From: Nemertoderma westbladi
Taxonomy: Eukaryota > Animalia > Xenacoelomorpha
Length of the DNA: 41,357 nt
Assembly (NCBI GenBank): GCA_032718475.1
Contig: JAUCBJ010000037.1
Location: 1-41,357, forward strand
Direction: 5' to 3'
In this document: one piece after another, positions 13,335 to 41,275 of the stretch
How positions within the stretch are numbered: the stretch's first letter is position 1
How the letters are laid out: the number at the start of each line of letters is the position of its first letter
Made by a program: the position numbers and the translations under genes
Notes under the pieces: generated by a model
Seen by the model: only the letters and a program-made list of their open reading frames with translations
The model's database searches: none
What the model was told of the DNA's origin: nothing

Positions 13335-13452
13335 ATGTCTGGAAATTTGGAAAAAACATCTTCAACTAGAAGCCTTCTGGACGACTTCCCACTGTTCCAG
13401 AAACTTCCGGCATCCTGGTTCATGGAGGTCTGGGACCATTATGATGAAAACG
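13335..13452 (+). CDS. Calbindin/secretagogin-like hexa-EF-hand protein, coding exon 1
   Basis: MSGNLEKTSSTRSLLDDFPLFQKLPASWFMEVWDHYDEN-G|GTAAGT, phase 1; resembles calbindin ASQFFEIWLHFDAD. Confidence 0.8.
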
Positions 13453-13667: not shown

Positions 13668-13738
13668 ATAACGGTTACCTTGAAGGTCTGGAGTTGGAAA
13701 AGTTCTTGAAAGACTTAAGTACAAAGCTTGCCGGGAAG
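13668..13738 (+). CDS. Calbindin/secretagogin-like, exon 2
   Basis: TTTCAG| (D)NGYLEGLELEKFLKDLSTKLAGK |GTTAGT; completes EF-hand 1 loop DENDNGYLEGLE. Confidence 0.85.
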
Positions 13739-16700
13739 GTTAGTTCAATTAATTCGGTACAAAGCTTGCCGGGAAGGTTAGTTCAATTAATTCGGTACAA
13801 AGCTTGCCGGGAAGGTTAGTTCAATTAATTCAGTACAAAGCTTGCCGGGAAGGTTAGTTCAATTAATTCGGTACAAAGCTTGCCGGGAAGGTTAGTTCAA
13901 TTAATTCAGTACAAAGCTTGCCGGGAAGGTTAGTTCAATTAATTCAGTACAAAGCTTGCCGGGAAGGTTAGTTCAATTAATTCAGTACAAAGCTTGCCGG
14001 GAAGGTTAGTTCAATTAATTCAGTACAAAGCTTGCCGGGAAGGTTAGTTCAATTAATTCAGTACAAAGCTTGCCGGGAAGGTTAGTTCAATTAATTCGGT
14101 ACAAAGCTTGCCGGGAAGGTTAGTTCAATTAATTCAGTACAAAGCTTGCCGGGAAGGTTAGTTCAATTAATTCGGTACAAAGCTTGCCGGGAAGGTTAGT
14201 TCAATTAATTCAGTACAAAGCTTGCCGGGAAGGTTAGTTCAATTAATTCAGTACAAAGCTTGCCGGGAAGGTTAGTTCAATTAATTCAGTACAAAGCTTG
14301 CCGGGAAGGTTAGTTCAATTAATTCAGTACAAAGCTTGCCGGGAAGGTTAGTTCAATTAATTCAGTACAAAGCTTGCCGGGAAGGTTAGTTCAATTAATT
14401 CAGTACAAAGCTTGCCGGGAAGGTTAGTTCAATTAATTCAGTACAAAGCTTGCCGGGAAGGTTAGTTCAATTAATTCAGTACAAAGCTTGCCGGGAAGGT
14501 TAGTTCAATTAATTCAGTACAAAGCTTGCCGGGAAGGTTAGTTCAATTAATTCAGTACAAAGCTTGCCGGGAAGGTTAGTTCAATTAATTCAGTACAAAG
14601 CTTGCCGGGAAGGTTAGTTCAATTAATTCAGTACAAAGCTTGCCGGGAAGGTTAGTTCAATTAATTCAGTACAAAGCTTGCCGGGAAGGTTAGTTCAATT
14701 AATTCAGTACAAAGCTTGCCGGGAAGGTTAGTTCAATTAATTCAGTACAAAGCTTGCCGGGAAGGTTAGTTCAATTAATTCAGTACAAAGCTTGCCGGGA
14801 AGGTTAGTTCAATTAATTCAGTACAAAGCTTGCCGGGAAGGTTAGTTCAATTAATTCAGTACAAAGCTTGCCGGGAAGGTTAGTTCAATTAATTCAGTAC
14901 AAAGCTTGCCGGGAAGGTTAGTTCAATTAATTCAGTACAAAGCTTGCCGGGAAGGTTAGTTCAATTAATTCAGTACAAAGCTTGCCGGGAAGGTTAGTTC
15001 AATTAATTCAGTACAAAGCTTGCCGGGAAGGTTAGTTCAATTAATTCAGTACAAAGCTTGCCGGGAAGGTTAGTTCAATTAATTCAGTACAAAGCTTGCC
15101 GGGAAGGTTAGTTCAATTAATTCAGTACAAAGCTTGCCGGGAAGGTTAGTTCAATTAATTCAGTACAAAGCTTGCCGGGAAGGTTAGTTCAATTAATTCA
15201 GTACAAAGCTTGCCGGGAAGGTTAGTTCAATTAATTCAGTACAAAGCTTGCCGGGAAGGTTAGTTCAATTAATTCAGTACAAAGCTTGCCGGGAAGGTTA
15301 GTTCAATTAATTCAGTACAAAGCTTGCCGGGAAGGTTAGTTCAATTAATTCAGTACAAAGCTTGCCGGGAAGGTTAGTTCAATTAATTCAGTACAAAGCT
15401 TGCCGGGAAGGTTAGTTCAATTAATTCAGTACAAAGCTTGCCGGGAAGGTTAGTTCAATTAATTCAGTACAAAGCTTGCCGGGAAGGTTAGTTCAATTAA
15501 TTCAGTACAAAGCTTGCCGGGAAGGTTAGTTCAATTAATTCAGTACAAAGCTTGCCGGGAAGGTTAGTTCAATTAATTCAGTACAAAGCTTGCCGGGAAG
15601 GTTAGTTCAATTAATTCAGTACAAAGCTTGCCGGGAAGGTTAGTTCAATTAATTCAGTACAAAGCTTGCCGGGAAGGTTAGTTCAATTAATTCAGTACAA
15701 AGCTTGCCGGGAAGGTTAGTTCAATTAATTCAGTACAAAGCTTGCCGGGAAGGTTAGTTCAATTAATTCAGTACAAAGCTTGCCGGGAAGGTTAGTTCAA
15801 TTAATTCAGTACAAAGCTTGCCGGGAAGGTTAGTTCAATTAATTCAGTACAAAGCTTGCCGGGAAGGTTAGTTCAATTAATTCAGTACAAAGCTTGCCGG
15901 GAAGGTTAGTTCAATTAATTCAGTACAAAGCTTGCCGGGAAGGTTAGTTCAATTAATTCAGTACAAAGCTTGCCGGGAAGGTTAGTTCAATTAATTCAGT
16001 ACAAAGCTTGCCGGGAAGGTTAGTTCAATTAATTCAGTACAAAGCTTGCCGGGAAGGTTAGTTCAATTAATTCAGTACAAAGCTTGCCGGGAAGGTTAGT
16101 TCAATTAATTCAGTACAAAGCTTGCCGGGAAGGTTAGTTCAATTAATTCAGTACAAAGCTTGCCGGGAAGGTTAGTTCAATTAATTCAGTACAAAGCTTG
16201 CCGGGAAGGTTAGTTCAATTAATTCAGTACAAAGCTTGCCGGGAAGGTTAGTTCAATTAATTCAGTACAAAGCTTGCCGGGAAGGTTAGTTCAATTAATT
16301 CAGTACAAAGCTTGCCGGGAAGGTTAGTTCAATTAATTCAGTACAAAGCTTGCCGGGAAGGTTAGTTCAATTAATTCAGTACAAAGCTTGCCGGGAAGGT
16401 TAGTTCAATTAATTCAGTACAAAGCTTGCCGGGAAGGTTAGTTCAATTAATTCAGTACAAAGCTTGCCGGGAAGGTTAGTTCAATTAATTCAGTACAAAG
16501 CTTGCCGGGAAGGTTAGTTCAATTAATTCAGTACAAAGCTTGCCGGGAAGGTTAGTTCAATTAATTCAGTACAAAGCTTGCCGGGAAGGTTAGTTCAATT
16601 AATTCAGTACAAAGCTTGCCGGGAAGGTTAGTTCAATTAATTCAGTACAAAGCTTGCCGGGAAGGTTAGTTCAATTAATTCAGTACAAAGCTTGCCGGGA

Positions 16701-17403
16701 AGGTTAGTTCAATTAATTCAGTACAAAGCTTGCCGGGAAGGTTAGTTCAATTAATTCAGTACAAAGCTTGCCGGGAAGGTTAGTTCAATTAATTCAGTAC
16801 AAAGCTTGCCGGGAAGGTTAGTTCAATTAATTCGGTACAAAGCTTGCCGGGAAGGTTAGTTCAATTAATTCAGTACAAAGCTTGCCGGGAAGGTTAGTTC
16901 AATTAATTCAGTACAAAGCTTGCCGGGAAGGTTAGTTCAATTAATTCAGTACAAAGCTTGCCGGGAAGGTTAGTTCAATTAACTCAGTACAAAGCTTGCC
17001 GGGAAGGTTAGTTCAATTAATTCAGTACAAAGCTTGCCGGGAAGGTTAGTTCAATTAATTCGGTACAAAGCTTGCCGGGAAGGTTAGTTCAATTAATTCG
17101 GTACAAAGCTTGCCGGGAAGGTTAGTTCAATTAATTCAGTACAAAGCTTGCCGGGAAGGTTAGTTCAATTAATTCAGTACAAAGCTTGCCGGGAAGGTTA
17201 GTTCAATTAATTCGGTACAAAGCTTGCCGGGAAGGTTAGTTCAATTAATTCAGTACAAAGCTTGCCGGGAAGGTTAGTTCAATTAATTCGGTACAAAGCT
17301 TGCCGGGAAGGTTAGTTCAATTAATTCAGTACAAAGCTTGCCGGGAAGGTTAGTTCAATTAATTCAGTACAAAGCTTGCCGGGAAGGTTAGTTCAATTAA
17401 TTC
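13718..17403 (+). repeat. 38-bp tandem array (97 copies) spanning the exon 2 splice donor
   Basis: Unit AGTACAAAGCTTGCCGGGAAG|GTTAGTTCAATTAATTC = last 21 nt of exon 2 + first 17 nt of intron 2; 3686 bp / 38 = 97. Confidence 0.97.
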
Positions 17404-18159: not shown

Positions 18160-19332
18160 ACACCAAATACAATACTAAATGTACAGGCCAATACAATGCT
18201 GTAATGTTCTCTAAAGTCTTTCATACACTGAGGTCGATAAAATGAGGACCAGTTGAATTACGGGGGGGAAAAACAAAGGAGTGACGCCCCGCCCACCCAC
18301 CCTTATCTTCTTGTAACAGCTATCGAAAAAGCAGCCTTTGGGTAAGCTCCGCCTTCTACCGACTGTTTTCATGAACATGCTGGTTTGCTTTTGCTTGCTA
18401 TAGATATTATATAGGCATGCTGTTGTTTCGCTACGCAAGAGATAAATCATCATTTTTAGTGCCGCCCTTCCGTCCGTAGTCGGCAATGATAAAGTCAACA
18501 TAATAATTTGTACAAAACATCTAACATGTTGGGAGTTTGGGAGGAACTTCAACTTCCAAGCATCCAACTTATTAATCCAAATCGTCTTAAATCTTATTAT
18601 GCAAAGGGAAATGGAAGCCAATTAAATTAAATATCCTTGATTAACGTCGTACACAGTACGAATGCCGAAATTTTGTCAATATAAGCTGACATGAATGACT
18701 GGAAGGATAATTTAGAAAGCAATGGTGACAGGCAATCATTGGACCATGGGTTGATTATGCAGCTAGTGGTACATTCTAATTCCCTGCAAGGGAATTTAAA
18801 CTGTTGCTTGCCATCAAAAAGTGAATTATTTAAAAACGAGTAATATTTTTCTTCCTGGAGCTCCATAAAGAGGGGGGGGGGGGGGGGGGATACTTTAAAT
18901 TCATTCCTCTCCAGACATCGACGCAAATAACAGCTGATTACGAGCGACAATTGATCTGTAACCTGTGCTATTGACTTTTTTAACAACCGTAATTTGTAAA
19001 CATATGTAGGCCTATGTAACTTTACGTTGTCAATAGTTAATATATTTTTTTCACATTGGGTAAATGATGTTGAAAGGTAGGTCTAATATATATTTGAAAA
19101 CTGGTATGATTATCTAATTATATATTTCACTGGAAATAAAATAGCCGCTGACCACGTCGTATAATTTGACGAGCAGGCGAGATCAATGGTAAAAAATTAA
19201 GGGCTTATAAGGGGAATAAAGCTAATTTATTTTGAGGTAAAATTAAAATTAATTCTTAAAATGGGTAACTGGTAATTTATATTAGGTTTTCATTCGAAAT
19301 AATTCATTTTATCACACGGTATTATGCTATGT

Positions 19333-19406
19333 GTCTCTGTGGCGCAATCGGCTAGCGCGTTAGACTGTTAATCTAAAGGTTGGTGGTTCGAGCCCACCCA
19401 GGGACG
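19333..19406 (+). tRNA. tRNA-Asn (GTT), intronic
   Basis: GTCTCTG/CAGGGAC acceptor stem, A-box TGGCGCAATCGG, anticodon arm TTAGA-CTGTTAA-TCTAA, T-arm GGTGG-TTCGAGC-CCACC, TTTT shortly downstream; near-identical to metazoan tRNA-Asn. Confidence 0.93.
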
Positions 19407-19439
19407 ATGCCATTTTGTAATACTTATATTATTTGTTTT

Positions 19440-20132: not shown

Positions 20133-20222
20133 GTTCCTCAGGATTCCGAATTACAAAAAATGAAGAAGAAACTTATGAAGAAGTACGATAAAGCGGGTGA
20201 TGGTAGAATATCTCTAGAAGAG
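20133..20222 (+). CDS. Calbindin/secretagogin-like, exon 3
   Basis: TATTACAG| VPQDSELQKMKKKLMKKYDKAGDGRISLEE |GTTAGT, phase 0/0; EF-hand 2. An in-frame alternative acceptor lies 9 nt downstream. Confidence 0.82.
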
Positions 20223-22298
20223 GTTAGTGGCTGGGTGGGTGATGGTAGAATATCTCTAGAAGAGGTTAGTGGCTGGGTGGGTGATGGTAGAATATCTCTA
20301 GAAGAGGTTAGTGGCTGGGTGGGTGATGGTAGAATATCTCTAGAAGAGGTTAGTGGCTGGGTGGGTGATGGTAGAATATCTCTAGAAGAGGTTAGTGGCT
20401 GGGTGGGTGATGGTAGAATATCTCTAGAAGAGGTTAGTGGCTGGTTGCGTGGGTGATGGTAGAATATCTCTAGAAGAGGTTAGTGGTTGGGTGGGTGATG
20501 GTAGAATATCTCTAGAAGAGGTTAGTGGCTGGGTGGGTGATGGTAGAATATCTCTAGAAGAGGTTAGTGGCTGGTTGCGTGGGTGATGGTAGAATATCTC
20601 TAGAAGAGGTTAGTGGCTGGGTGGGTGATGGTAGAATATCTCTAGAAGAGGTTAGTGGTTGGGTGGGTGATGGTAGAATATCTCTAGAAGAGGTTAGTGG
20701 CTGGGTGGGTGATGGTAGAATATCTCTAGAAGAGGTTAGTGGCTGGGTGGGTGATGGTAGAATATCTCTAGAAGAGGTTAGTGGCTGGGTGGGTGATGGT
20801 AGAATATCTCTAGAAGAGGTTAGTGGCTGGGTGGGTGATGGTAGAATATCTCTAGAAGAGGTTAGTGGCTGGTTGCGTGGGTGATGGTAGAATATCTCTA
20901 GAAGAGGTTAGTGGTTGGGTGGGTGATGGTAGAATATCTCTAGAAGAGGTTAGTGGCTGGGTGGGTGATGGTAGAATATCTCTAGAAGAGGTTAGTGGCT
21001 GGTTGCGTGGGTGATGGTAGAATATCTCTAGAAGAGGTTAGTGGCTGGGTGGGTGATGGTAGAATATCTCTAGAAGAGGTTAGTGGTTGGGTGGGTGATG
21101 GTAGAATATCTCTAGAAGAGGTTAGTGATTGGGTGGGTGATGGTAGAATATCTCTAGAAGAGGTTAGTGGCTGGGTGGGTGGGTGATGGTAGAATATCTC
21201 TAGAAGAGGTTAGTGGCTGGGTGGGTGATGGTAGAATTTCTCTAGAAGAGGTTAGTGGCTGGGTGGGTGATGGTAGAATATCTCTAGAAGAGGTTAGTGG
21301 TTGGGTGGGTGATGGTAGAATTTCTCTAGAAGAGGTTAGCGGCTGGGTGGGTGATGGTAGAATATCTCTAGAAGAGGTTAGTGGTTGGGTGGGTGATGGT
21401 AGAATTTCTCTAGAAGAGGTTAGCGGCTGGGTGGGTGATGGTAGAATATCTCTAGAAGAGGTTAGTGGCTGGGTGGGTGATGGTAGAATATCTCTAGAAG
21501 AGGTTAGTGGCTGGGTGGGTGATGGTAGAATATCTCTAGAAGAGGTTAGTGGTTGGGTGGGTGATGGTAGAATTTCTCTAGAAGAGGTTAGCGGCTGGGT
21601 GGGTGATGGTAGAATTTCTCTAGAAGAGGTTAGCGGCTGGGTGGGTGATGGTAGAATATCTCTAGAAGAGGTTAGTGATTGGGTGGGTGATGGTAGAATA
21701 TCTCTAGAAGAGGTTAGTGGCTGGGTGGGTGATGGTAGAATATCTCTAGAAGAGGTTAGTGGCTGGGTGGGTGATGGTAGAATATCTCTAGAAGAGGTTA
21801 GTGGTTGGGTGGGTGATGGTAGAATTTCTCTAGAAGAGGTTAGTGGCTGGGTGGGTGATGGTAGAATTTCTTTAGAAGAGGTTAGTGGTTGGGTGGGTGG
21901 GTGATGGAAGAATATCTCTAGAAGAGGTTAGTGATTGGGTGGGTGATGGAAGAATATCTCTAGAAGAGGTTAGTGATTAGGTGGCTGATGGTAGAATATA
22001 TCTAGAAGATGTTAGTGGCTGGGTGGGTGATGGTAGAATATATCTAGAAGAGGTTAGTGGCTGGGTGGGTGATGGTAGAATATCTCTAGAAGATGTTAGT
22101 GGCTGGGTGGGTGATGGTAGAATATATCTAGAAGAGGTTAGTGGCTGGGTGGGTGATGGTAGAATATCTCTAGAAGAGGTTAGTGGCTGGGTGGGTGATG
22201 GTAGAATTTCTCTAGAAGAGGTTAGTGGCTGGGTGGGTGATGGTAGAATATCTCTAGAAGAGGTTAGTGGCTGGGTGGGTGATGGTAGAATATATCTA
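20195..22298 (+). repeat. 42-bp tandem array spanning the exon 3 splice donor, left part (about 50 copies)
   Basis: Unit GGGTGATGGTAGAATATCTCTAGAAGAG|GTTAGTGGCTGGGT = last 28 nt of exon 3 + first 14 nt of intron 3. Confidence 0.96.
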
Positions 22299-22299
22299 T

Positions 22300-22923
22300 C
22301 TATAATATGTCTAATCTATCTTTAAGTTGAACATAAATTGCTCTTTTCGCTGGAAACAGACAAGAAATGGCATCACCATTAAACTTGAAATTCTCGCTAA
22401 CACATATGGGAGTAACTACCCTGTTGGGGGCCTTTACATAAGTAAACTCAGTAATGCAACTCGGGTGAGTTTCAAGCACAGATATGATTTTGTTTCTAAT
22501 TTCCTCAGCTGTATCTATGCTACAGAAATCGAGCATGCAATGCTTCACTATGTTAGAATGTTTGATAGTAATTAATTCATCTTTATAATGCTTCCCACGT
22601 ACTACAACCATTGCCTTACTGAAAGTCGTTGCTGCTGGCCTTCCACGGGGAGAAGAAAGACGTGCACGAGATGGAGTTATTCGTCGTCGGCTTACTGACC
22701 CAGTTGGAACCGATGCATATGGTGCAAATTGACGATTTAGTTCAGCTATTAACTCACGCCTATTTGAACTAGGAACTGAAGCAATATCGCAACTGGTGCC
22801 ACAATGTGAACAAAACTTATCCTCAGCACTAAGAGTTTTACTGCAATTCTGGCAGATCATAGTTCTGCATTGACGGCGGGAAATTGTCAAATATTTTTTC
22901 AAGCTACAAATGCAATCTGTCAA
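22300..22923 (-). CDS. Hypothetical transposon-borne protein with N-terminal zinc ribbon (CQNC...FCSHCG); probably truncated
   Basis: 207-aa ORF (first Met at about 22860, MICQNC) with two CxxC pairs; its stop lies at the insertion junction. Confidence 0.5.
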   Translation of the reverse strand: MTDCICSLKKYLTISRRQCRTMICQNCSKTLSAEDKFCSHCGTSCDIASVPSSNRRELIAELNRQFAPYASVPTGSVSRRRITPSRARLSSPRGRPAATTFSKAMVVVRGKHYKDELITIKHSNIVKHCMLDFCSIDTAEEIRNKIISVLETHPSCITEFTYVKAPNRVVTPICVSENFKFNGDAISCLFPAKRAIYVQLKDRLDIL

Positions 22924-23063
22924 TAATATTTTCCTAATAAATGTTTTATATTGTAAAGTATGTAGGCTTCTACATACGGTGGCTGAATTCCAAAATTAAT
23001 TATTAGAATGAAATGGTGACTTACATGTGGTGGTGAACAGGCATTATTCCTTGGCTTAACGGG

Positions 23064-23277
23064 CGCAGTGGCAGTACGGCTAATGTCGCATTACGGAAAG
23101 TCGCGTTACGGCTAATCTCTCAAAAATTTAGCTGTAACGCGACAATTAGCCGTAACGCGACAATTAGCCGCAACGCGACTTTTAGAGTAGCCGTACCGCG
23201 ACTTTGAAAGTCGCGTTACAGCTAATCTCTCATAAAATTAGCCGTAACGAGACATTAGCCGTAACGAGACCACACCG
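23064..23277. mobile_element. Nested Mutator-like MITE
   Basis: 9-bp flanking direct repeat CTTAACGGG / CTTAACGAG; termini CGCAGTGG / CCACACCG; internal inverted arrays of GTCGCGTTACGGCTAA. Confidence 0.6.
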
Positions 23278-23366
23278 CTTAACGAGCCTAAAAGATTCTC
23301 CCATTCATAATATAATTAATTTTGGCCCAATTCAGCCAACGTATCAACAGCATAATACTAATAATG

Positions 23367-23647
23367 GCCCATGTGAAGAATACCAGACTTTCTGCCGTTA
23401 TATTTCACTTTGCGGTTACCCCCCATGTGAAGAATACCAGGTTTTGACCAAAAACACAGGTTACAGAAGGGCTGAATTTAACCAAAACAATAAACGAAAT
23501 AGTATATGTATGTACAGGTTATAAGACAGAAATAAACGCATATAAAACATTTATTAAAGATAAATTTAAAAAAAATTAAAAATCTTAATATAAAATTCCA
23601 ATAAAAGGTCGTCCGAAAAGTGAAATCCTGGTATTCTTCACATGGGC
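23367..23647. mobile_element. Nested MITE remnant
   Basis: 20-bp inverted repeat GCCCATGTGAAGAATACCAG / CTGGTATTCTTCACATGGGC, with a further direct copy near 23421. Confidence 0.5.
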
Positions 23648-24065
23648 GTATGGGCGCAAATTATAAACTGTAACACTTAATATAGTACATCAATTTAATG
23701 GTTTGTTGAATTATTAATTTTTATTGAATTTAAAAGAATCACATTAAGTAGAAATCATGCATCTGACTACTGCTAAACAAAAATTCAGTCCAGAATAGGG
23801 ACCGCCGCGCCGCGCGGCTATTGTACCAAAGTACAAATACAATATTGCAACTCTGGCTTGTATAAACAAACATGCTACCCTAAACTCGACACGACGCCCC
23901 TTAATACAGACAGGAGGCAGAGATAATGTTACGGTATGCTGAAATGAATGATATAGAAAGAAGGCCTATTTAATACCTATTATATATATCCCTATTGCAC
24001 CTATAAGGGTATTTCCTCTGCTGCTATTGGATGGCCGTTTCCTACTGTCCCAATTAACAGCCAAT

Positions 24066-26709
24066 CGCGATTTTTTTCGCGAGATGTGTATTTTTCTCGC
24101 GAGTTTAATCATTTATCTCGCGAGATTAATTATTTTCTCGCGAGTTTAATCATTTATCTCGCGAGATTAATTATTTTCTCGCGAGTTTAATCATTTATCT
24201 CGCGAGATTAATTATTTTCTCGCGAGATTAATTATTTTCTCGCGAGTTTAATTATTTTCTCGCGAGTTTAATCATTTATCTCGCGAGATTAATTATTTTC
24301 TCGTGGGATTAATTATTTTCTCGCGAGTTTAATCATTTATCTCGCGAGATTAATTATTTTCTCGCGAGTTTAATCATTTATCTCGCGAGATTAATTATTT
24401 TCTCGCGAGTTGAATCATTTATCTCGCGAGATTAATTATTTTCTCGCGTGTTTAATCATTTATCTCGCGAGATTAATTATTTTCTCGCGAGTTTAATCAT
24501 TTATCTCGCGAGATTAATTATTTTCTCGCGAGATTAATCATTTATCTCGCGAGTTTAATCATTTATCTCGCGAGATTAATTATTTTCTCGCGAGTTTAAT
24601 CATTTATCTCGCGAGATTAATCATTTATCTCGCGAGTTTAATCATTTATCTCGCGAGATTAATTATTTTCTCGCGAGTTTAATCATTTATCTCGCGAGAT
24701 TAATTATTTTCTCGCGAGTTTAATCATTTATCTCGCGAGATTAATTATTTTCTCGCGAGTTTAATCATTTATCTCGCGAGATTAATTATTTTCTCGCGAG
24801 TTTAATCATTTATCTCGCGAGTTTAATCATTTATCTCGCGAGATTAATTATTTTCTCGCGAGTTTAATCATTTATCTCGCGAGATTAATTATTTTCTCGC
24901 GAGTTGAATTATTTATCTCGCGAGATTAATTATTTTCTCGCGTGTTTAATCATTTATCTCGCGAGATTAATTATTTTCTCGCGAGTTTAATCATTTATCT
25001 CGCGAGATTAATTATTTTCTCGCGAGATTAATCATTTATCTCGCGAGTTTAATCATTTATCTCGCGAGATTAATTATTTTCTCGCGAGTTTAATCATTTA
25101 TCTCGCGAGATTAATTATTTTCTCGCGAGTTTAATCATTTATCTCGCGAGATTAATTATTTTCTCGCGAGTTTAATCATTTATCTCGCGAGATTAATTAT
25201 TTTCTCGCGAGTTTAATCATTTATCTCGCGAGATTAATTATTTTCTCGCGAGTTTAATCATTTATCTCGCGAGATTAATTATTTTCTCGCGAGTTTAATC
25301 ATTTATCTCGCGAGATTAATTATTTTCTCGCGAGTTTAATCATTTATCTCGCGAGATTAATTATTTTCTCGCGAGTTTAATCACTTATCTCGCGAGATTA
25401 ATTATTTTCTCGCGAGTTTAATCATTTATCTCGCGAGTTTAATCATTTATCTCGCGAGATTAATTATTTTCTCGCGAGTTTAATCGTTTATCTCGCGAGA
25501 TTAATTATTTTCTCGCGAGTTGAATCATTTATCTCGCGAGATTAATTATTTTCTCGCGTGTTTAATCATTTATCTCGCGAGATTAATTATTTTCTCGCGA
25601 GTTTAATCATTTATCTCGCGAGATTAATTATTTTCTCGCGAGATTAATCATTTATCTCGCGAGTTTAATCATTTATCTCGCGAGATTAATTATTTTCTCG
25701 CGAGTTTAATCATTTATCTCGCGAGATTAATTATTTTCTCGCGAGTTTAATCATTTATCTCGCGAGATTAATTATTTTCTCGCGAGTTTAATCATTTATC
25801 TCGCGAGATTAATGATTTTCTCGCGAGTTTAATCATTTATCTCGCGAGATTAATTATTTTCTCGCGAGTTTAATCATTTATCTCGCGAGATTAATTATTT
25901 TCTCGCGAGTTTAATCATTTATCTCGCGAGATTAATTATTTTCTCGCGAGTTTAATCATTTATCTCGCGAGATTAATTATTTTCTCGCGAGTTTAATCAT
26001 TTATCTCGCGAGATTAATTATTTTCTCGCGAGTTTAATCATTTATCTCGCGAGATTAATTATTTTCTCGCGAGTTTAATCATTTATCTCGCGAGATTAAT
26101 TATTTTCTCGCGAGTTTAATCATTTATCTCGCGAGATTAATTATTTTCTCGCGAGTTTAATCATTTATCTCGCGAGTTTAATCATTTATCTCGCGAGATT
26201 AATTATTTTCTCGCGAGTTTAATCATTTATCTCGCGAGATTAATTATTTTCTCGCGAGTTGAATCATTTATCTCGCGAGATTAATTATTTTCTCGCGTGT
26301 TTAATCATTTATCTCGCGAGATTAATTATTTTCTCGCGAGTTTAATCATTTATCTCGCGAGATTAATTATTTTCTCGCGAGATTAATCATTTATCTCGCG
26401 AGTTTAATCATTTATCTCGCGAGATTAATTATTTTCTCGCGAGTTTAATCATTTATCTCGCGAGATTAATTATTTTCTCGCGAGTTTAATCATTTATCTC
26501 GCGAGATTAATTATTTTCTCGCGAGTTTAATCATTTATCTCGCGAGATTAATTATTTTCTCGCGAGTTTAATCATTTATCTCGCGAGATTAATTATTTTC
26601 TCGCGAGTTTAATCATTTATCTCGCGAGATTAATTATTTTCTCGCGAGTTTAATCATTTATCTCGCGAGATTAATTATTTTCTCGCGTGTTTAATCATTT
26701 ATCTCGCGA
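24066..26709. repeat. Satellite of alternating 21- and 20-bp monomers (41-bp dimer), each with CTCGCGAG
   Basis: TTTAATCATTTATCTCGCGAG + ATTAATTATTTTCTCGCGAG, roughly 125-130 monomers; recurring variant blocks indicate higher-order structure. Confidence 0.96.
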
Positions 26710-26773
26710 CTAAATTCAGAAGAATATCAAGGGGAAATAAAATGTCGAATAAAAATACTAAAAGTATGCCATA

Positions 26774-28475
26774 TAGAAGAGGTTAGTGGCTGGGTGGGTG
26801 ATGGTAGAATTTCTCTAGAAGAGGTTAGTGGTTGGGTGGGTGATGGTAGAATTTCTTTAGAAGAGGTTAGTGGCTGGGTGGGTGATGGTAGAATTTCTCT
26901 AGAAGAGGTTAGTGATTGGGTGGGTGATGGTAGAATATCTCTAGAAGAGGTTAGTGGTTGGGTGGGTGATGGTAGAATATCTCTAGAAGAGGTTAGTGGT
27001 TGGGTGGGTGATGGTAGAATATATCTAGAAGAGGTTAGTGGCTGGGTGGGTGATGGTAGAATATCTCTAGAAGAGGTTAGTGGTTGGGTGGGTGATGGTA
27101 GAATATCTCTAGAAGAGGTTAGTGGTTGGGTGGGTGATGGTAGAATTTCTCTAGAAGAGGTTAGTGGCTGGGTGGGTGATGGTAGAATTTCTCTAGAAGA
27201 GGTTAGTGGCTGGGTGGGTGATGGTAGAATTTCTCTAGAAGAGGTTAGTGGCTGGGTGGGTGGGTGATGGTAGAATTTCTTTAGAAGAGGTTAGTGGCTG
27301 GGTGGGTGATGGTAGAATTTCTCTAGAAGAGGTTAGTGGTTGGGTGGGTGATGGTAGAATTTCTCTAGAAGAGGTTAGTGGTTGGGTGGGTGATGGTAGA
27401 ATTTCTCTAGAAGATGTTAGTGATTGGATGGGTGATGGTAGAACTTATTTAGAAGAGGTTAGTGGCTGTGTGGGTGATGGTAGAATTTCTCTAGAAGAGG
27501 TTAGTGGCTGGGTGGGTGATGGTAGAATTTCTCTAGAAGAGGTTAGTGGCTGGGTGGGTGGGTGATGGTAGAATATCTCTAGAAGAGGTCAGTGATTGGG
27601 TGGGTGATGGTAGAATTTCTCTAGAAGAGGTTAGTGGCTGGGCGGGTGATGGTAGAACTTATTTAGAAGAGGTTAGTGGCTGGCTGGGTGGGTGGGTGAT
27701 GGTAGAATTTCTCTAGAAGAGGTTAGTGGCTGGGTGGGTGATGGTAGAACTTATTTAGAAGAGGTTAGTGGCTGGGTGGGTGGGTGATGGTAGGATTTCT
27801 CTAGAAGAGGTTAGTGATTGGGTGGGTGATGGTAGAATTTATCTAGAAGATGTTAGTGGTTGGGAGGGTGATGGTAGAATTTCTCTAGAAGAGGTTGGTG
27901 GCTGGGTGGGTGGGTGATGGTAGAATTTCTCTAGAAGAGGTTAGTGATTGGGTGGGTGATGGTAGAATTTATCTAGAAGAGGTTAGTGGTTGGGAGGGTG
28001 ATGGTAGAATTTCTCTAGAAGAGGTTAGTGGTTGGGTGGGTGATGGTAGAACTTATTTAGAAGAGGTTAGTGGCTGGGTGGGTGGGTGATGGTAGAATTT
28101 CTCTAGAAGAGGTTAGTGATTGGGTGGGTGATGGTATAATTTTTCTAGAAGAGGTTAGTGATTGGGTGGGTGATGGTAGAATTTATCTAGAAGAGGTTAG
28201 TGGCTGGGTGGGTGGGTGATGGTAGAATTTCTCTAGAAGAGGTTAGTGATTGGGTGGGTGATGGTAGAATTTTTCTAGAAGAGGTTAGTGATTGGGTGGG
28301 TGATGGTAGAATTTATCTGGAAGAGGTTAGTGGCTGGGTGGGTGGGTGATGGTAGAATTTCTCTCGAAGAGGTTAGTGATTGGGTGGGTGATGGTAGAAT
28401 TTTTCTAGAAGAGGTTGGTGATTGGGTGGGTGATGGTAGAATTTATCTAGAAGAGTTGGTGGTTGGGTGGGTGAT
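26774..28475 (+). repeat. 42-bp exon 3 donor array, right part (about 40 copies, progressively diverging)
   Basis: Same unit as 20195-22298, with more substitutions and GGGT slippage toward the 3' end. Confidence 0.94.
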
Positions 28476-28622: not shown

Positions 28623-28766
28623 ATGACTTCGATATTGCCCACAGACCAAAACTTCATTCTATTGTTTCAACGGGATCAGAAACTAACATCGAGTGTTGAA
28701 CTTCTCACATTGTGGCGAAAATACGACCTGGACAAGACTGGCTTTATTAACCAACAAGAACTTAAA
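28623..28766 (+). CDS. Calbindin/secretagogin-like, exon 4
   Basis: TTTTAG| MTSILPTDQNFILLFQRDQKLTSSVELLTLWRKYDLDKTGFINQQELK |GTTAGT; matches the family signature LPxEENFLLLF...SSVEFMxxWRKYD. Confidence 0.92.
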
Positions 28767-28883: not shown

Positions 28884-29067
28884 CTCTTTGTAAAAGATTG
28901 GATCGAGAAAGCCAATCCTTCAGGTGTGACAGACCAAAAGTTAGACGAATACGTTCAATGCATCCTAAAGAACTTTGTCAAGGAAGATAAACTCTCTTTA
29001 CATGACATGGCGAGATTGTTAGACACACGGACTAACTTTCTGGTTGAGTTTGAAGATGCATCGAAAG
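28884..29067 (+). CDS. Calbindin/secretagogin-like, exon 5
   Basis: TTTTGCAG| LFVKDWIEKANPSGVTDQKLDEYVQCILKNFVKEDKLSLHDMARLLDTRTNFLVEFEDASK-G |GTAATA, phase 1; KLxEY and MARLL..NFL signatures. Confidence 0.9.
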
Positions 29068-29199
29068 GTAATAGTTGTGATTATAATATATATTGTCTTT
29101 ATATCTATTATTGTCATCATGCACTTCTAGTAACTAACACACAATTAAATGATGTTTCGTTTATTCGTATTGCAGTTTATATATAAGAATATAGATTAT

Positions 29200-31130
29200 G
29201 GTGTCACTCTCGGTGCTTTTTGTTTTAGGCAGAGAGAAGGGTGTCACTCTCAGTGCTTTTTGTTTTAGGCAGAGAGAAGGGTGTCACTCTCAATGATTTT
29301 TGTTTTAGGTAGAGAGAAGGGTGTCACTCTCAGTGCTTTTTGTTTTAGGTAGAGAGAAGGGTGTCACTCTCAGTGCTTTTTGTTTTAGGTAGAGAGAAGG
29401 GTGTCACTCTCAGTGATTTTTGTTTTAGGTAGAGAGAAGGGTGTCACTCTCAATGCTTTTTGTTTTAGGTAGAGAGAAGGGTGTCACTCTCAGTGATTTT
29501 TGTTTTAGGTAGAGAGAAGGGTGTCACTCTCAATGCTTTTTGTTTTAGGTAGAGAGAAGGGTGTCACTCTCGGTGCTTTTTGTTTTAGGTAGAGAGAAGG
29601 GTGTCACTCTCAGTGATTTTTGTTTTAGGTAGAGAGAAGGGTGTCACTCTCAATGCTTTTTGTTTTAGGTAGAGAGAAGGGTGTCACTCTCGGTGCTTTT
29701 TGTTTTAGGTAGAGAGAAGGGTGTCACTCTCAGTGATTTTTGTTTTAGGTAGAGAGAAGGGTGTCACTCTCAGTACTTTTTGTTTTAGGTAGAGAGAAGG
29801 GTGGCACTCTCGGTGCTTTTTGTTTTAGGTAGAGAGAAGGGTGTCACTATCAGTGCTTTTTGTTTTAGGTAGAGAGAAGGGTGTCACTCTCAGTGATTTT
29901 TGTTTTAGGTAGAGAGAAGGGTGTCACTCTCAGTACTTTTTGTTTTAGGTAGAGGGAAGGGTGTCACTCTCAGTGCTTTTTGTTTTAGGTAGAGAGAAGG
30001 GTGTCACTATCAGTGCTTTTTGTTTTAGGTAGAGAGAAGGGTGTCACTCTCGGTGCTTTTTGTTTTAGGTAGAGAGAAGGGTGTCACTATCAGTGCTTTT
30101 TGTTTTAGGTAGAGAGAAGGGTGGCACTCTCGGTGCTTTTTGTTTTAGGTAGAGAGAAGGGTGTCACTATCAGTGCTTTTTGTTTTAGGTAGAGAGAAGG
30201 GTGTCACTCTCAGTGATTTTTGTTTTAGGTAGAGAGAAGGGTGTCACTCTCAGTACTTTTTGTTTTAGGTAGAGGGAAGGGTGTCACTCTCGGTGCTTTT
30301 TGTTTTAGGTAGAGAGAAAGGTGTCACTCTCAGTGCTTTTTGTTTTAGGTAGAGAGAAGGGTGTCACTCTCGGTGCTTTTTGTTTTAGGTAGAGAGAAGG
30401 GTGTCACTATCAGTGCTTTTTGTTTTAGGTAGAGAGAAGGGTGTCACTCTCGGTGCTTTTTGTTTTAGGTAGAGAGAAGGGTGTCACTATCAGTGCTTTT
30501 TGTTTTAGGTAGAGAGAAGGGTGTCACTCTCAGTGATTTTTGTTTTAGGTAGAGAGAAGGGTGTCACTCTCAGTACTTTTTGTTTTAGGTAGAGAGAAGG
30601 GTGGCACTCTCGGTGCTTTTTGTTTTAGGTAGAGAGAAGGGTGTCACTATCAGTGCTTTTTGTTTTAGGTAGAGAGAAGGGTGTCACTCTCAGTGATTTT
30701 TGTTTTAGGTAGAGAGAAGGGTGTCACTCTCAGTACTTTTTGTTTTAGGTAGAGGGAAGGGTGTCACTCTCAGTGCTTTTTGTTTTAGGTAGAGAGAAGG
30801 GTGTCACTATCAGTGCTTTTTGTTTTAGGTAGAGAGAAGGGTGTCACTCTCAGTGATTTTTGTTTTAGGTAGAGAGAAGGGTGTCACTCTCAGTGCTTTT
30901 TGTTTTAGGTAGAGAGAAGGGTGTCACTCTCGGTGCTTTTTGTTTTAGGTAGAGAGAAGGGTGTCACTCTCAATGATTTTTGTTTTAGGTAGAGAGAAGG
31001 GTGTCACTCTCAGTGATTTTTGTTTTAGGTAGAGAGAAGGGTGTCACTATCAGTGCTTTTTGTTTTAGGTAGAGAGAAGGGTGTCACTCTAAAATATTTT
31101 TGTTTTAGGTAGAGAGAAGGGTGTCACTCT
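29200..31130 (+). repeat. 40-bp tandem array (48 acceptor copies) spanning the exon 6 splice acceptor
   Basis: Unit CAGTGCTTTTTGTTTTAG|GTAGAGAGAAGGGTGTCACTCT = 18 nt of acceptor + first 22 nt of exon 6; AG ends at 29228, 29268 ... 31108. Confidence 0.97.
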
Positions 31131-31236
31131 AAAAGATTTCGAAAAGGTTTTTAACTATTACGATAAATCTCAAACGGGTTACCTTGAAAATGAAGAAATT
31201 GATGCTTTCGTCAAGGATTTCTTTGAGTTGGCTTAT
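31109..31236 (+). CDS. Calbindin/secretagogin-like, exon 6
   Basis: TTTTAG| (G)REKGVTLKDFEKVFNYYDKSQTGYLENEEIDAFVKDFFELAY |GTAAGT; EF-hand 5; phase agrees with exon 5. Confidence 0.88.
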
Positions 31237-31380
31237 GTAAGTTTTCTGTCATCAATCTTTAAATGTAGGTAGATCCTCTGCGCACAGTTTTTCAACTTTG
31301 GTGTAATTAATTTGACATTATGGACGAAGCAAAGCGAAAAAAAACAAAATTCACCTTTTGATAGAGTTAAATATATTTAT

Positions 31381-31663: not shown

Positions 31664-32730
31664 TTGTGTCCGCCGGTAGGGGGTGCTATGTTTCTGGGTC
31701 CGCCGGTAGGGGGTATTATGTTTCTGGGTACGCCGGTAGGGGGCGGTATTTTTATGGGTCTGTCGGTAGGAGGCGCCATGTTTCTGGGTCCGCCGGTCGG
31801 GGGTGCTATGTTTTTGGGTCCGCCGGTTGGGACTGCTATGTTTGTGGGTCCACCGGTAGAGGGTGCTATGTTTCTGGGTCCGCCGGTAGGGGCTGCTATG
31901 TTTGTGTGTCCGCCGGTATGGAGTGCTATGTTTTTGGGTCCGCCGGTTGGGACTGCTATGTTTGTGGGTCCACCGGTAGAGGGTGCTATGTTTCTGGGTC
32001 CGCCGGTAGGGGCTGCTATGTTTGTGTGTCCGCCGGTTGGGGGTACTATGTTTTTGGGTCCGCCGGTTGGGAGTGCTATGTTTTTAGGTCCGCCAGTAGG
32101 GGGTGCTATGTTTCTGGGTCCGCCGCCGCTAGGGGGTGCTATGTTTCTGGGCACGCCGGTAGTGGGTGGTATTTTAATGGGTACGCGCCGGTAGGGGCCC
32201 CTAAGTTTCTGGGCCCGCCGGTAGGGGGTGCTATGTTTCTGGGTCCGTCGGTAGGGGGTGCTATGTTTTTGGGTCCGCCGGTAGGGGGTACTATGTTTCT
32301 GGGTCCGCCGGTAGGGGGTGCTATGTTTGTGGGTCCGCCGGTAGGGGCTGCTATGTTTCTGGGTCCGCCGGTAGGGGGTGCTATGTTTTTGGGTCCGCCG
32401 GTAGGGGGTGCTATGTGTCTGGGTCCGCAGGTAGGGGCTGCTATGTTTGTGGGTCCGCCGGTAGGGGCTGCTATGTTTCTGGGTCCGCCGGTAGGGGGTG
32501 CTATGTTTTTGGGTCCGCTGGTAGTGGGTGCTCTGTTTCTGGGTACGCCGGTAGGGGGCGGTATTTTTATGGGTCCGCCGGTAGGGGCTGCTATGTTTGT
32601 GGGTCCGCCGGTAGGGGCTGCTATGTTTCTGGGTCTGCCGGTTAGGGCGCTATGTTTCTGTGTTCCCGGGAAGGGGCTGCTATGTTTCTGGGTCCGCCGG
32701 TAGGGGGCGCTATGTTTGTGGGTCCCGTAG
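31664..32730. repeat. 30-bp GC-rich minisatellite (about 35 copies) in intron 6
   Basis: Unit GGGTCCGCCGGTAGGGGGTGCTATGTTTCT with many variants. Confidence 0.95.
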
Positions 32731-33133: not shown

Positions 33134-33268
33134 CCTGGGATTACCATTGGACAAATAGATCGATTTAAAGGCGGCCTAATGGGCCTGTGCAAAGTCGACC
33201 AGGATAAGGACGGGAAGATAAGCAAAAAGGAGCTAGCCATGATATTAATCAACGCTAAGGACAAGTGA
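33134..33268 (+). CDS. Calbindin/secretagogin-like, exon 7 (last)
   Basis: TTTACAG| PGITIGQIDRFKGGLMGLCKVDQDKDGKISKKELAMILINAKDK*; EF-hand 6; AATAAA at 33509 and 33548. Total CDS 870 nt = 289 aa. Confidence 0.88.
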   Translation, partial: PGITIGQIDRFKGGLMGLCKVDQDKDGKISKKELAMILINAKDK

Positions 33269-36571: not shown

Positions 36572-37447
36572 CTAAATATAAAATTAGTTATTATTTAATT
36601 AACTAATTATTCGTTCCATTAGAGACCAGCTATCATATTAGAGAGGCGGGTGTTTATTCTTAAAAATAGCCTTTGTCCCGTTCTGTACAGTAGGTCTACA
36701 GCTACAGATTTAAGTTTGTACATTTTGTCCCGGCGGGAGAATAACATTATCAATAACCATGCCTTTCCATAGTCCTATACTGACCATAATTAAGGATATG
36801 GAATGCAGTGTCGATCTTTGTACTTTTTAGTGCCAATTTATCATGCTGATGCACTCGCTGCCCACACCAAATTTTATCCACGATCACCTCCTTAGTTACT
36901 TATTACTAAACCAACGCAATGGACAAATTAAAACGAATGTTGATTTTAAGTAAGACAATAACTAAAATAAATTAATTTAATTGCTTATAATATAAAGTAC
37001 AACATGCTGATTATTACATTACTATATTGCAAGTAAAAATTAAATTAACACAACTATTAACATCAATACTACCAACATGATTCGAATAGGCCTACAAATA
37101 TTACGGATAACAAGTTAATCCAGAATGGATCACAATTTTGACATCCTTATATAAAGATTTAAGCACTATTCCTTCCGATAGACAAAGCACACAACATGTA
37201 CCACCACAAGATGCCATTTTATGTTTGCAATGATTGAAGTTATTATGGCTTTCCAAAAGTAATGCACCACGTCCACCATGTAGATTGGAATATGACATAA
37301 TAATTATATATAATATTATTATATTAGGACTACATAACTGAATATACTGAATTTTGTTTGTTGAAAACAAAAATGCTTCATTGCGTGAATTGATATAGAA
37401 AATTGATCATCTACCTTTTGAAATATTTATGATATGTTTTTAGATAC

Positions 37448-37647
37448 CTGATTACGTATTTTCCGCTAATGCGTGTTGGAACACAATAAATCCCACCATC
37501 TTTGTTCGCCATGGCCAGAAGTTGCTCGTTAGTTTTGTCCGACGCTTTCAGTCGGAAACAAACTAGACTCAGCAAGACATTGTTTGAAACTTCAAAGCGA
37601 TTATCAGTGAGAACGAGTTCCTGGAATTGCTTAGCTAATGCCACATG
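37448..37647 (-). CDS. DDC: Aromatic L-amino acid decarboxylase-like, exon
   Basis: TTTTCAG| HVALAKQFQELVLTDNRFEVSNNVLLSLVCFRLKASDKTNEQLL...GKYVI-AG |GTATCT; LVCFRLK signature. Confidence 0.88.
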
Positions 37648-37799
37648 CTGAAAAAGTGAAATAAGTATTAAAATAGAGGGCGTTTGAGATAATACCCATG
37701 AATGAAATGATATTGTAAGAAGTCCATGAAGTTAACACCTTCACAGTTGGCGATCAGCTATGCAAACCCACAATTCATATGCATTATCCGGCCGAGTGA

Positions 37800-39530
37800 C
37801 CTTTATTAACAGTGCAGTCGCAACCCAGAACATTGGTCTAGTTTGTCCAGCTCTAAAGACTATAGTGACAAACTGCTACAGCCAGCCCACAAAACTCTTC
37901 ATTATTGGGGGCGAATACATTTCCTCCTCCGAGTGATTCACCCAGGGCGACCCGCTTGTAATGCCAAGCTATGCAATCGGAATGATCCCACTCCTGGATG
38001 AGTTGAAAGAGGCATCCGACACAATCCAGAAGTGGTATGCGGATGACGGGAATGCTGCTGGAGAGCTGTCCGAGATCAGAAAGTGGTGGGACGTACTATC
38101 CAGACGGGGGCCACTCTATTGGTACTTCCCCACCAAGTATACACTTCTTGTGAAACATGAGTTCCTTGTCGAAGCCCAGCAACTATTTACCAAACCATGT
38201 TTCGCCATTGGCATCCGAGGTAGTAATTGGAGTAATTGGTAATGACGAGTTCCGGGTCGAGTTTATTCAACACAAGGTGGCAGAGTTCATCCAACAGGTC
38301 AAACAGCCATAGCGACCATTGACCCCCACTGTGCCTATGCTGGTCTTGCTATAGGGTTGTCGGGCCGGTGGCGTTACCTCTCTAGGGGAGTATCAGGAGC
38401 GACCATACAGTTTGGAGAATTTGAGGATGCTGTTACTAACTCTCTGGTTGCGCTCACCGGTCAGCCCACTATTAGCCCCTCGGAAGTGCCACTCCCAGGC
38501 GACCTGGTGACACAGTTCAATAACTCTCGGTCATTATGCGAGCCATTCAACCAATTTGATGACCCAACAGATGCAAGGAAAGCACAGGAGGAAGCCGCGA
38601 AGGGGATAAAGGCAGTGGAAGCAGTCTGGCTAACAGTGAGGGAGGAAGAACTAAAGACACCACTGCCCCAGAACTACAACTACGACTTCAGGAGCTGACC
38701 TCAGAGAAGGGTGCATCGTCCTGGTTGAACTCTCGACCCATGACGTTACACTGCACCCATCTGAACAAACAGGAGTTCTGTGATGCTTTGTGCCTGCGCT
38801 TCGGTTGGCAGCCACGACTTCTCCCGGCCCGGTGTGCCTGTGTGACGCGATTTTCCGTCAATCATGCTTTGTCATGTCCCACAGGTGACCCTTCCATCCG
38901 CCATAACGAAGTCCGTGACTTCTTTGCAACTACCCTGACAGAAGTAACTCATAATGTCGCTGTTGAGCCACACTTGCAGCTAGTCACTGGTGAGCAATTC
39001 AGCCTTCGCTCAACCTCCACTGACCAACATGCTCGTGTCCTGTTGCGGGTTTTGGGGATCTTGTTCCCAAAAGTCATTCCTTGATGTCTCGGTATTCAAT
39101 CCCCTGGCTCAGTCGAAAGCCGCCATGAACCTCGAGTCTGCCCATCTACACCACGAGGCCCGCAAACGCAGCCACTATGAGGAACGGGTACGTGAGATCG
39201 AGCTCGCCACCTTCACGCCTTTGATTTTTTCGGCATTTGGTGGACTCCCCCCCGACGACAACCCAGTTTATCAAACGTCTTGGAATTCTCCTGTCAGAGA
39301 AGCGCGAGACGCCTTATTCGGAGTGCGTCCGCTGGGTTCGTCGGGAAGTGAGTTTCGCCCTCCTCCGTGCCGGCATACTGTGCCTCCGAGGTGCACGCTC
39401 TGCTCGACTTCGACCTGTACGCTGCGAGGGTCCCCTTCTAATGGTCAATTCGGACATTGACGTCTGATGGTGGAGAGAAGCAGAGGAGTCGGAAAGAAGG
39501 TATCGAAATCGAAAACAGAAGAAAAAAAAA
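37800..39530 (+). mobile_element. Decayed, 5'-truncated non-LTR retrotransposon, CRE-like (RT + restriction-like endonuclease), antisense in a DDC intron
   Basis: TQGDPL and WYADDG RT motifs; CAC..FSVNHALSC..RHNEVRD; GFW..FLDVSVFNP; HEARKRSHYEERVREIE..TFTPLIFSAFGG; several frameshifts and stops; A-rich tail ending at 39530. Confidence 0.85.
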
Positions 39531-40338
39531 TCGGGAGCAACTTTATTTTGACTGGACTTATATACGAACCAAAACATATCTACAATATAAACTGTGTAAT
39601 ATTGAGGCGGGATATAATTAGTATTAACATGTAGGCATTGCATTGTTGCCGAGTGTCCTGAACGATTCGGGAAGGTCAATCGTTCACCACCACGTTTCCT
39701 TTGCCTTTCTTTCCCCAACCATATAACCAATTATATAACAATCATATAACAAGATCACGCCCAGCTAATCAATACTACGGTTGCAACTCTCATCTTCCTT
39801 CGTGTCTGCTGGGTGGAGATTGAGATAATAATGATGTATCAATAATGAAGATGAGCTTAAGATGGAGGCCGATGAATGTGTGAAGATCGATCGAAATAAT
39901 TGATTTGCTACTAATTAACAATGTTATTACCGTTTTTATCTAGAATATTTCTTTCTCACCATATCATTGAAAGTTGAAATGGACTTTTAACGATCATGCT
40001 GTCCTTGTTAGAGAGGAAATTTTATGTTGAGATAATTTTAAAAGTTTTAGTTTATTAGTTGAACAATATTCACGGATGATGATGGGGCAGTGTGATGGAA
40101 CACCATCTTGAAAAGGTTATATTCATGACCAATCTTATGTTCTTATTCAATTATAATTAAAATCGATTCTTAATATAAATATAAATCTAAATAAATCAGA
40201 AATATATAATAAAAATTACGACCAAATTTATTATGTATTAATCTACACTTATCTACACTCATCACTTATCTACTTACACTATTATTAGTTGGCAATTTTC
40301 ACCCCGATAGACCTTAAAAATTATAGAAATGAATTTAC

Positions 40339-40410
40339 ACCTCCGTGGTGTAGTGGTTAGCATACCTGAACGTTTATCGGGAGACGCGGGTTCGATCCCC
40401 GCTGGTGGCG
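40339..40410 (+). pseudogene. tRNA-like element (tRNA pseudogene or SINE head)
   Basis: A-box TGGTGTAGTGG, B-box GGTTCGATCCC, paired anticodon and T stems; loop ACGTTTA lacks U33 and purine 37; two acceptor-stem mismatches; T6 downstream. Confidence 0.65.
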
Positions 40411-40715
40411 AATTCATTTTTTCCGCTCCATTTGCTATAGAGTTGGATCATCCTTAGTCCTGTTTAATTACTTATAATTTATAGAAACGAATCTTGCAAT
40501 TTTTGATTGATTTAAAAATTGAAATACGGTTTCTGGAATGTCCATCAATGACAGTAATTAATAGATTTCTCTAGGCCGATTTTATATTTAGTCTGTGACA
40601 TTTCTGCATGTGTGTAGTAAAAATCTCCATAGAGCATTGCAATTTGTTTTAGTTCTCACACTATCTTTGCTGCCCTAAATATGTAAACGTTTTACGAAAT
40701 AAAATAGAAGCTCAC

Positions 40716-40905
40716 CCGACGAATATGGGACTGGAGACCATTAACTCCTATCATACGCAAAACCATCCACAGTTTAAGAGCGCGAAATCGTCGACCTAAT
40801 CCCACTTGCCAGTGGCGATAATCGATAACTTTGGATTCTTTGTCGTGTTGAAGATACAATGGATTTACAACAAAGGACGAAGCGAATTCATGTCTGTCAT
40901 CAACC
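40716..40905 (-). CDS. DDC: Aromatic L-amino acid decarboxylase-like, exon
   Basis: TTCTAG| (W)[63 protein letters not shown] |GTGAG. Confidence 0.92.
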
Positions 40906-41275
40906 CTAGAATAAAAAAGCATAAGAACTCCAGTGATATTAAAACTAGATAGCAAAAACACATTTAATTTTAAATAATTTATATTTTGAATAATGTTTGA
41001 AACGTTTTCATTTCTTTTTCCATAGAGATACACCTTTCATTTTTACACTCAGGGTCTCTTTCAGCATTTAGGCAATAACCCTTAACCCATACGATGGTCT
41101 CGATAAATTGTGGATACAGGAGCAGCATCGTGTGATAGAAGGTAAATATATCCATAAGATTACTTACGTTTTAAATACATCACATTACCAGCGTATTATC
41201 TGTAGCGGCTGCGGACTAATCGTTTTGAAAACAAATTTATATTAACACAATAATAGTTTTAATAATTACACTTAC

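Follow-up and report, generated by a model that had tools for sequence, protein, structure and literature searches.

A 48-copy minisatellite across a splice acceptor of a calbindin-family gene in Nemertoderma westbladi, probably carrying silent upstream acceptors

Introduction

Which of 48 tandem splice acceptors is used at the end of a single intron, and what selects it, is the question raised by a minisatellite in the genome of Nemertoderma westbladi (Xenacoelomorpha). The array lies in intron 5 of an EF-hand gene and was analysed together with its whole surroundings, a stretch of 41,357 nt (contig JAUCBJ010000037.1 of assembly GCA_032718475.1) that is called the window hereafter. An earlier note on this DNA had described each acceptor as an AG/GT, ratchet-like site, and had proposed that wrongly chosen acceptors might be rescued by recursive re-splicing or, alternatively, that exon definition together with the donor at 31237 picks the last copy.

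An array of this type is known in kind, as repeats spanning splice junctions have been described in amphioxus and human genes; what is distinctive here are the copy numbers, the fact that one gene has three such arrays, and the clean test that they offer. A literature search, most subscription journals being outside its scope, found neither a genome-wide survey of the amphioxus type of repeat, known as mirages, nor a study of the mechanism at work in an acceptor array.

The Host Gene

The gene is predicted to have seven coding exons on the plus strand, separated by introns that are all GT-AG, and to encode a protein of 289 aa (Table 1). The spliced product can be aligned over its full length with the homologous protein P0121 (131 identities over 289 aa), and the alignment is gap-free over the exon 5/6 and exon 3/4 junctions. 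Its identity to all 14 aligned homologues (P0121 plus 13 of 16 search hits, kept by a length of 170-320 aa) ranges from 30 to 46%, and the ten homologues whose names were checked are all calretinin-, calbindin- or secretagogin-like; identity to Branchiostoma proteins is 38-41%. The best PDB matches of exons 4 and 6 are secretagogin/calbindin chains (E 1e-17 and 9e-17), and EF-hand models were matched by four of the six exons scanned, each below Pfam's cut-off, as expected when single exons are scanned. With its similarity over the full length, its EF-hand matches and a size within the range of about 270-300 aa, the predicted protein is accordingly placed in the calbindin/calretinin/secretagogin family, at the level of the family as a whole. 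Colinearity with P0121 supports the proposed junction between exons 5 and 6, and with it the gene model of the earlier note, short of proof because the linker at this position varies across the family (31 to 47 residues among the homologues spanning it). A word-index protein search with exon 5 returned six candidates, none of which was confirmed, a metagenome scan with the exon 4 peptide gave 496 pattern matches, likewise with none confirmed, and a metagenome scan with a 32-nt piece of the repeat unit gave no matches.

Table 1. Coordinates of the host gene, its junction-spanning arrays and related features within the window
Feature	Coordinates	Strand	Remarks
Coding exon 1	13335..13452	+	alignment with P0121, open frame
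Coding exon 2	13668..13738	+	alignment with P0121, open frame
38-bp minisatellite	13718..17403	+	97 copies across exon 2 donor; TRF
Coding exon 3, EF-hand	20133..20222	+	open frame, profile match
42-bp minisatellite, first part	20195..22298	+	across exon 3 donor, 49.5 copies; TRF
Insert splitting the exon 3 donor array	22299-26773		4.5 kb
Exon 3 donor minisatellite, second part	26774..28475	+	39.7 copies (TRF), past 4.5-kb unrelated insert
Coding exon 4	28623..28766	+	best PDB matches secretagogin and calbindin
Coding exon 5	28884..29067	+	184 nt; donor at 29068, phase 1
Intron 5	29068..31108	+	2041 nt; about 161 nt minus the 47 extra units
Acceptor-like site upstream of array	29134..29175	+	CTAAC at -39, followed by a pyrimidine tract and CAG at 29175
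40-bp minisatellite	29200..31130	+	48.3 copies across intron 5/exon 6 acceptor; TRF
47 decoy acceptors (putative)	29227..31068	+	AG ends 29228, 29268 ... 31068; stop within 41-65 nt if used
Last divergent unit	31069..31108	+	predicted productive acceptor, AG ends 31108; sole branch-like CTAA core of 48
Coding exon 6, EF-hand	31109..31236	+	128 nt; starts with GT; donor at 31237
Coding exon 7, stop codon included	33134..33268	+	open frame, profile match

Structure of the Acceptor Array

The minisatellite has a period of 40 and 48.3 copies (TRF; copy number as assembled), and its extra units make up 92% of intron 5. A script found a T-rich tract followed by TAG in all 48 copies, with AG ends running from 29228 to 31108 and an acceptor-to-acceptor spacing of exactly 40 nt in each of the 47 intervals. 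The acceptor is followed by GTAGAG in 46 copies and by GCAGAG in the first two, so the tandem acceptors reported in the earlier note are all there, in a regularity that far exceeds chance. Each unit consists of 22 nt from the start of exon 6 and 18 nt from the end of the intron, closing in the acceptor. Among the 47 full units, 14 variant types can be told apart, the mean identity to the consensus is 97%, and the variation is unevenly placed: unit positions 1-22 are a near match to the start of exon 6, with five variable columns, and at positions 23-28 all six columns vary and units are up to five bases off the exon. This clustering of the differences between unit and exon has a P of about 1e-4, uncorrected for a window chosen post hoc. 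The simplest reading of these positions is that they were originally intron sequence; the alternative of a 31+9 unit with later drift would need many changes within six bases. The last 12 nt of the acceptor (unit positions 29-40) are invariant in all 48 copies, a pattern (none of 12 columns variable, P about 0.09) that is not significant as a sign of constraint and leaves the idea of selection keeping the acceptors intact unsupported.

The two ends of the array differ from its interior, the first two units and the last unit each being unique among the units. Only the last one contains AAAATATTT, one base off the AAAAGATTT of the exon, and over 31 nt this unit and the exon are one base apart; the other units differ at positions 23-28, where exon 6 has AAAAGA, the last unit AAAATA and an internal form CAGTGC. 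The simplest reading is that an exchange with the exon, out of register, replaced the earlier sequence of the last unit, which agrees with the exchange between exon and repeat already suspected from the resemblance. Within the array, units 33-40 are an exact copy of units 13-20. In 2000 shuffles of the unit order the longest repeated block was of six units and none reached seven or more, so this 8-unit repeat points to a block duplication by unequal exchange and argues against pure assembly stutter; real repeat turnover fits the pattern better. In sum of its architecture, the array has head-to-tail copies of minisatellite size, a boundary-spanning unit, and inner turnover combined with a divergent boundary unit, which are three structural features of a mirage.

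Between the exon 5 donor and the array lies one further acceptor-like site (29134-29175), with a branch motif better than that of any unit and an AG-free stretch of 43 nt. Splicing to it would define an intron of 108 nt and run into an immediate stop, and the site looks unused.

Predicted Outcomes of Splicing to Each Copy

Joining exon 5 to any of acceptors 2-47 brings in a stop 41 nt past the junction, and joining it to acceptor 1 brings one in at 65 nt. The earlier expectation that upstream acceptors either shift the frame or stop was right in that all of them fail, and has to be amended in that every one stops, including the 15 that keep the frame. Among the 48, only the last acceptor yields the open 289-aa frame, just as had been claimed; when all AGs from 29075 to 31236 are considered, direct splicing leaves the frame open only at 31108 and at three AGs inside exon 6.

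Several signals might mark out the last copy. With three branch-like motifs tested, copy 48 is the only one of the 48 with a match (a CTAA core with its A at -17) and none of the other 47 has one, a contrast that is post hoc and loose, one of six authentic acceptors also being without a motif. An extra AG stands 13 nt before the acceptor in 31 of the 47 upstream copies and is absent in the other 16; the AG-free stretch at five other authentic acceptors is 26-116 nt long. As for exon definition, the exons made from copies 45-47 would be 168-248 nt long, which is a normal size, and for this reason exon definition alone does not exclude these copies, which are among the last few that could borrow the donor at 31237. 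Selection of the last copy by exon definition from that donor, as the earlier note had offered as one option, is nevertheless the most likely chooser on the sequence data. In each of the three junction arrays of the gene it is the outermost site that gives the family-like 289-aa protein.

Two other ideas were tried and rejected. Hairpins that mask the acceptors of copies 1-47 but keep that of copy 48 exposed are contradicted by local folding, in which copy 48 is predicted to be among the least accessible (rank 47-48 of 48, under three settings), a position that would hinder its choice instead of favouring it. A productive microexon within the array has in-frame options on paper only (such as one of 12 nt that stops before an internal GT, with a donor of 3/9), and the donors are poor, none reaching 7/9.

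Sister Arrays and Other Repeats of the Gene

The two other junction arrays lie on the donor side. At exon 2, the 38-bp unit comprises 21 nt of exon and 17 nt of intron, the array has 99% matches and is probably the youngest, and the frame is open from the first donor only, of 97. At exon 3, about 86 copies (49 + 37 pattern matches) of a 42-bp unit are present, and this unit is stop-free: with donors 2-6 (20195-20432) the frame would stay open, for proteins of 303-359 aa that contain additional EF-loop-like repeats of 14 residues, so that leakage at this array would escape NMD, unlike leakage at the acceptor array. The 4.5-kb insert that splits it is likely a mobile element; it contains a stop-free frame of 231 aa on the minus strand (22300-22995) with a zinc-ribbon match, and a palindrome-rich 41-bp array of 64 copies (24092-26709). 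Intron 6 contains a GC-rich array of 35 copies of 30 bp (31668-32725), in which no match to exons of the host gene was seen by eye.

Of five large arrays in the gene that count as independent, three lie across a splice site. When the arrays are collapsed, the per-array chance is about 0.04-0.07 and the P is 0.0008-0.0035 under a crude null and for one gene, and with the array under study left out (two of four) it is 0.011-0.029 on the same crude, single-gene terms. That the lineage has a mutational process seeding minisatellites at splice junctions is a tentative thought, and rather to be doubted than accepted.

Other Features of the Window

The window also holds a spermine synthase-like frame (6308-7447, minus strand), which is intronless and has at best 56% identity among the proteins listed, with 55-56% to Branchiostoma proteins. 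In a quick tree of 34 hand-chosen sequences out of 120 listed hits it forms a long branch, in no supported group and outside the Branchiostoma pair; the intronless gene may be atypical. Exons of a pyridoxal-dependent decarboxylase gene lie at 37100-41036 (minus strand), and one of its introns contains a decayed reverse-transcriptase-like stretch (~37800-39470), recognised by eye in the reading frames. Within introns there are also two tRNA-Asn(GTT)-like sequences, 19332-19407 and 40338-40411.

Discussion

The array is best explained, with a probability of about 0.78, as a mirage minisatellite whose 47 upstream acceptors would be silent passengers that leave together with the intron when exon 5 is joined to the last copy by a single ordinary splice. 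This is supported by the make-up of the unit, the stops after copies 1-47, the block duplication and the two sister arrays at donors. The array could have begun as a small tandem duplication spanning the acceptor, later amplified through slippage or unequal exchange, and would have been tolerated since the exon stays intact at the outermost copy. This last acceptor would be favoured as the nearest to the exon 6 donor (128 nt) and the one with the full exon sequence behind it, perhaps with the assistance of its better branch point, and rare slips to other copies would produce stop-containing RNA that is degraded.

The ratchet-like character attributed to the 48 sites has a simpler origin. Exon 6 starts with GT, as exon 3 does (two of the six internal exon starts of the gene), and its copies have inherited this start and with it the AG/GT; the sister arrays at donors have the same design without any AG/GT logic. 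What this reading proposes is that exon 5 is joined to an upstream copy and that the AAG/GTAGAG donor so formed is spliced again to the last acceptor, in one step or several. The mRNA left by a zero-length re-splice to acceptor 48 would be the correct one to the letter and AG/GT is present in 45 of the 47 upstream copies, which could make of the intron a self-correcting ladder, a recursive intron newly built by a young minisatellite, in which landing on any of these 45 copies is followed by zero-length ratcheting. The regenerated donor scores 5/9, one match below the 6/9 of exon 5's own donor (a crude nine-position count of matches to the U1-pairing consensus, not MaxEntScan), and weak regenerated sites can function upon EJC loss (PMC8184009). 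The same score is, on the other hand, the lowest of the seven donors compared, against 6-7/9 in all six authentic donors of the gene (7/9 at 31237); the regenerated donor lacks the G at +5, and no donor-like 9-mer of at least 7/9 is found between 29068 and 31237. In Drosophila Bx any weakening of the ratchet donor switched its use off, and ratchet points are described as lying mostly in long introns, as ultraconserved and as dependent on a cryptic exon that has a donor of its own downstream (PMC8605326). Intron 5 is short (2041 nt), which counts against a ratchet as a tendency and not as a strict rule, and the invariance of the last 12 nt of the unit does not reach significance. Among ratchet-point features, AG/GT is present in 46 of 48 copies, and a donor strong enough to outcompete the downstream one and a long intron are missing. 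Copies 1-2, the first to be transcribed, have GC. Moreover, the correct mRNA bears the same junction, and re-use of it would leave out exon 6 (128 nt) and shift the frame, so that the gene needs the regenerated donor to be off; the EJC is reported to keep donors that re-form at new junctions repressed (PMC6224609, and also PMC8184009). Recursive rescue, including its ladder form, is judged from the sequence to be quite unlikely as the main route, low-level use being possible; should it be true, it would show a route by which ratchet points arise.

A second rival keeps the mirage and differs in what the upstream acceptors do: a real fraction of the transcripts would use them and be degraded by NMD, so that copy number tunes expression. 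Each of the 47 upstream copies leads to a premature stop ahead of a later junction, and the nearest ones yield exons of normal size. In the human genes 6-16 and CBS pseudo-sites are indeed used, and a title cited in the same source ties the CBS repeat to reduced activity (PMC1557585). For the acceptor mirages of amphioxus, by contrast, aberrant mRNA is absent according to PMC3902484 and PMC3087553, and the present data have no sign of selection on the array, which makes such tuning improbable, if somewhat less so than recursive rescue. An assembly artefact, accounting for the whole array or for the greater part of its length, is very hard to credit. The amphioxus draft genome did contain one mirage in wrongly assembled form (PMC3087553), but here the 14 unit types, the ordered block structure and the distinct boundary units speak against an artefact, as do three junction arrays of different sequence within one gene.

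The silent array proposed here has its closest counterparts in the amphioxus mirages, minisatellite-like duplications of intron-exon boundaries in Adh3 and globin genes (PMC3087553), whose members include BflGb9 (PMC3087553) as well as troponin C and PGBD5 (PMC3902484). In both cases, tandem copies span the boundary, acceptor and donor versions exist and the splice signals are kept; the globin BflGb6 carries the acceptor version, made of the 3' end of an intron and the 5' start of an exon, and the 40-bp unit falls inside the 10-72 bp range of Adh3. The amphioxus repeats are described as keeping AG/GT, being unstable in length and having boundary units outside homogenisation (PMC3087553), and here too a boundary copy is set apart from a homogenised interior. 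The difference is one of scale, BflGb6 having 3-6 copies against 48, 97 and about 86 in the present gene. In amphioxus, splicing was undisturbed by RT-PCR (PMC3087553). The mechanism by which mirages form is called unclear in PMC3087553.

Human genes provide a second set, the VNTRs at junctions of F7 (IVS7, 37 bp x 5-9), 6-16, CBS (IVS13), LMNB2 and PDGF (intron 4) (PMC1557585). As predicted for Nemertoderma, the true site is the outermost one, in the first or last monomer, and sequence-identical pseudo-sites are mostly silent there: F7, LMNB2 and PDGF use the authentic site alone, and 6-16 and CBS use two pseudo-donors besides it (PMC1557585), so leakage has precedent. These are donor arrays, comparable to those at exons 2 and 3, whereas that at 29200-31130 is an acceptor array. 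According to the same source, classical experiments with duplicated sites conflicted over which copy is used (PMC1557585). With recursive splice sites (ratchet points of Drosophila and vertebrate RS-exons) the array shares AG/GT at the acceptor, and exon 6 formally regenerates a GT donor, as do 3.6% of human exons at the published threshold; it differs in its weak regenerated donor, its short intron and its young tandem origin; for a cryptic exon, the array itself offers no donor of at least 7/9, but its last few copies could borrow the one at 31237. Tandem copies each with AG/GT also recall the gain of introns by tandem duplication of an AG/GT proto-splice site (Rogers 1989, via PMC3087553), with the difference that the copies here lie inside an existing intron and create no new productive exon with a donor of at least 7/9.

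The choice of the outermost site has been studied for donors (PMC1557585). The array of Nemertoderma is a natural substrate for testing how the spliceosome picks the outermost of 48 identical acceptors, with two donor arrays in addition, and the presence of three junction arrays in one gene makes it more pressing to ask why repeats of this type arise where splice sites lie.
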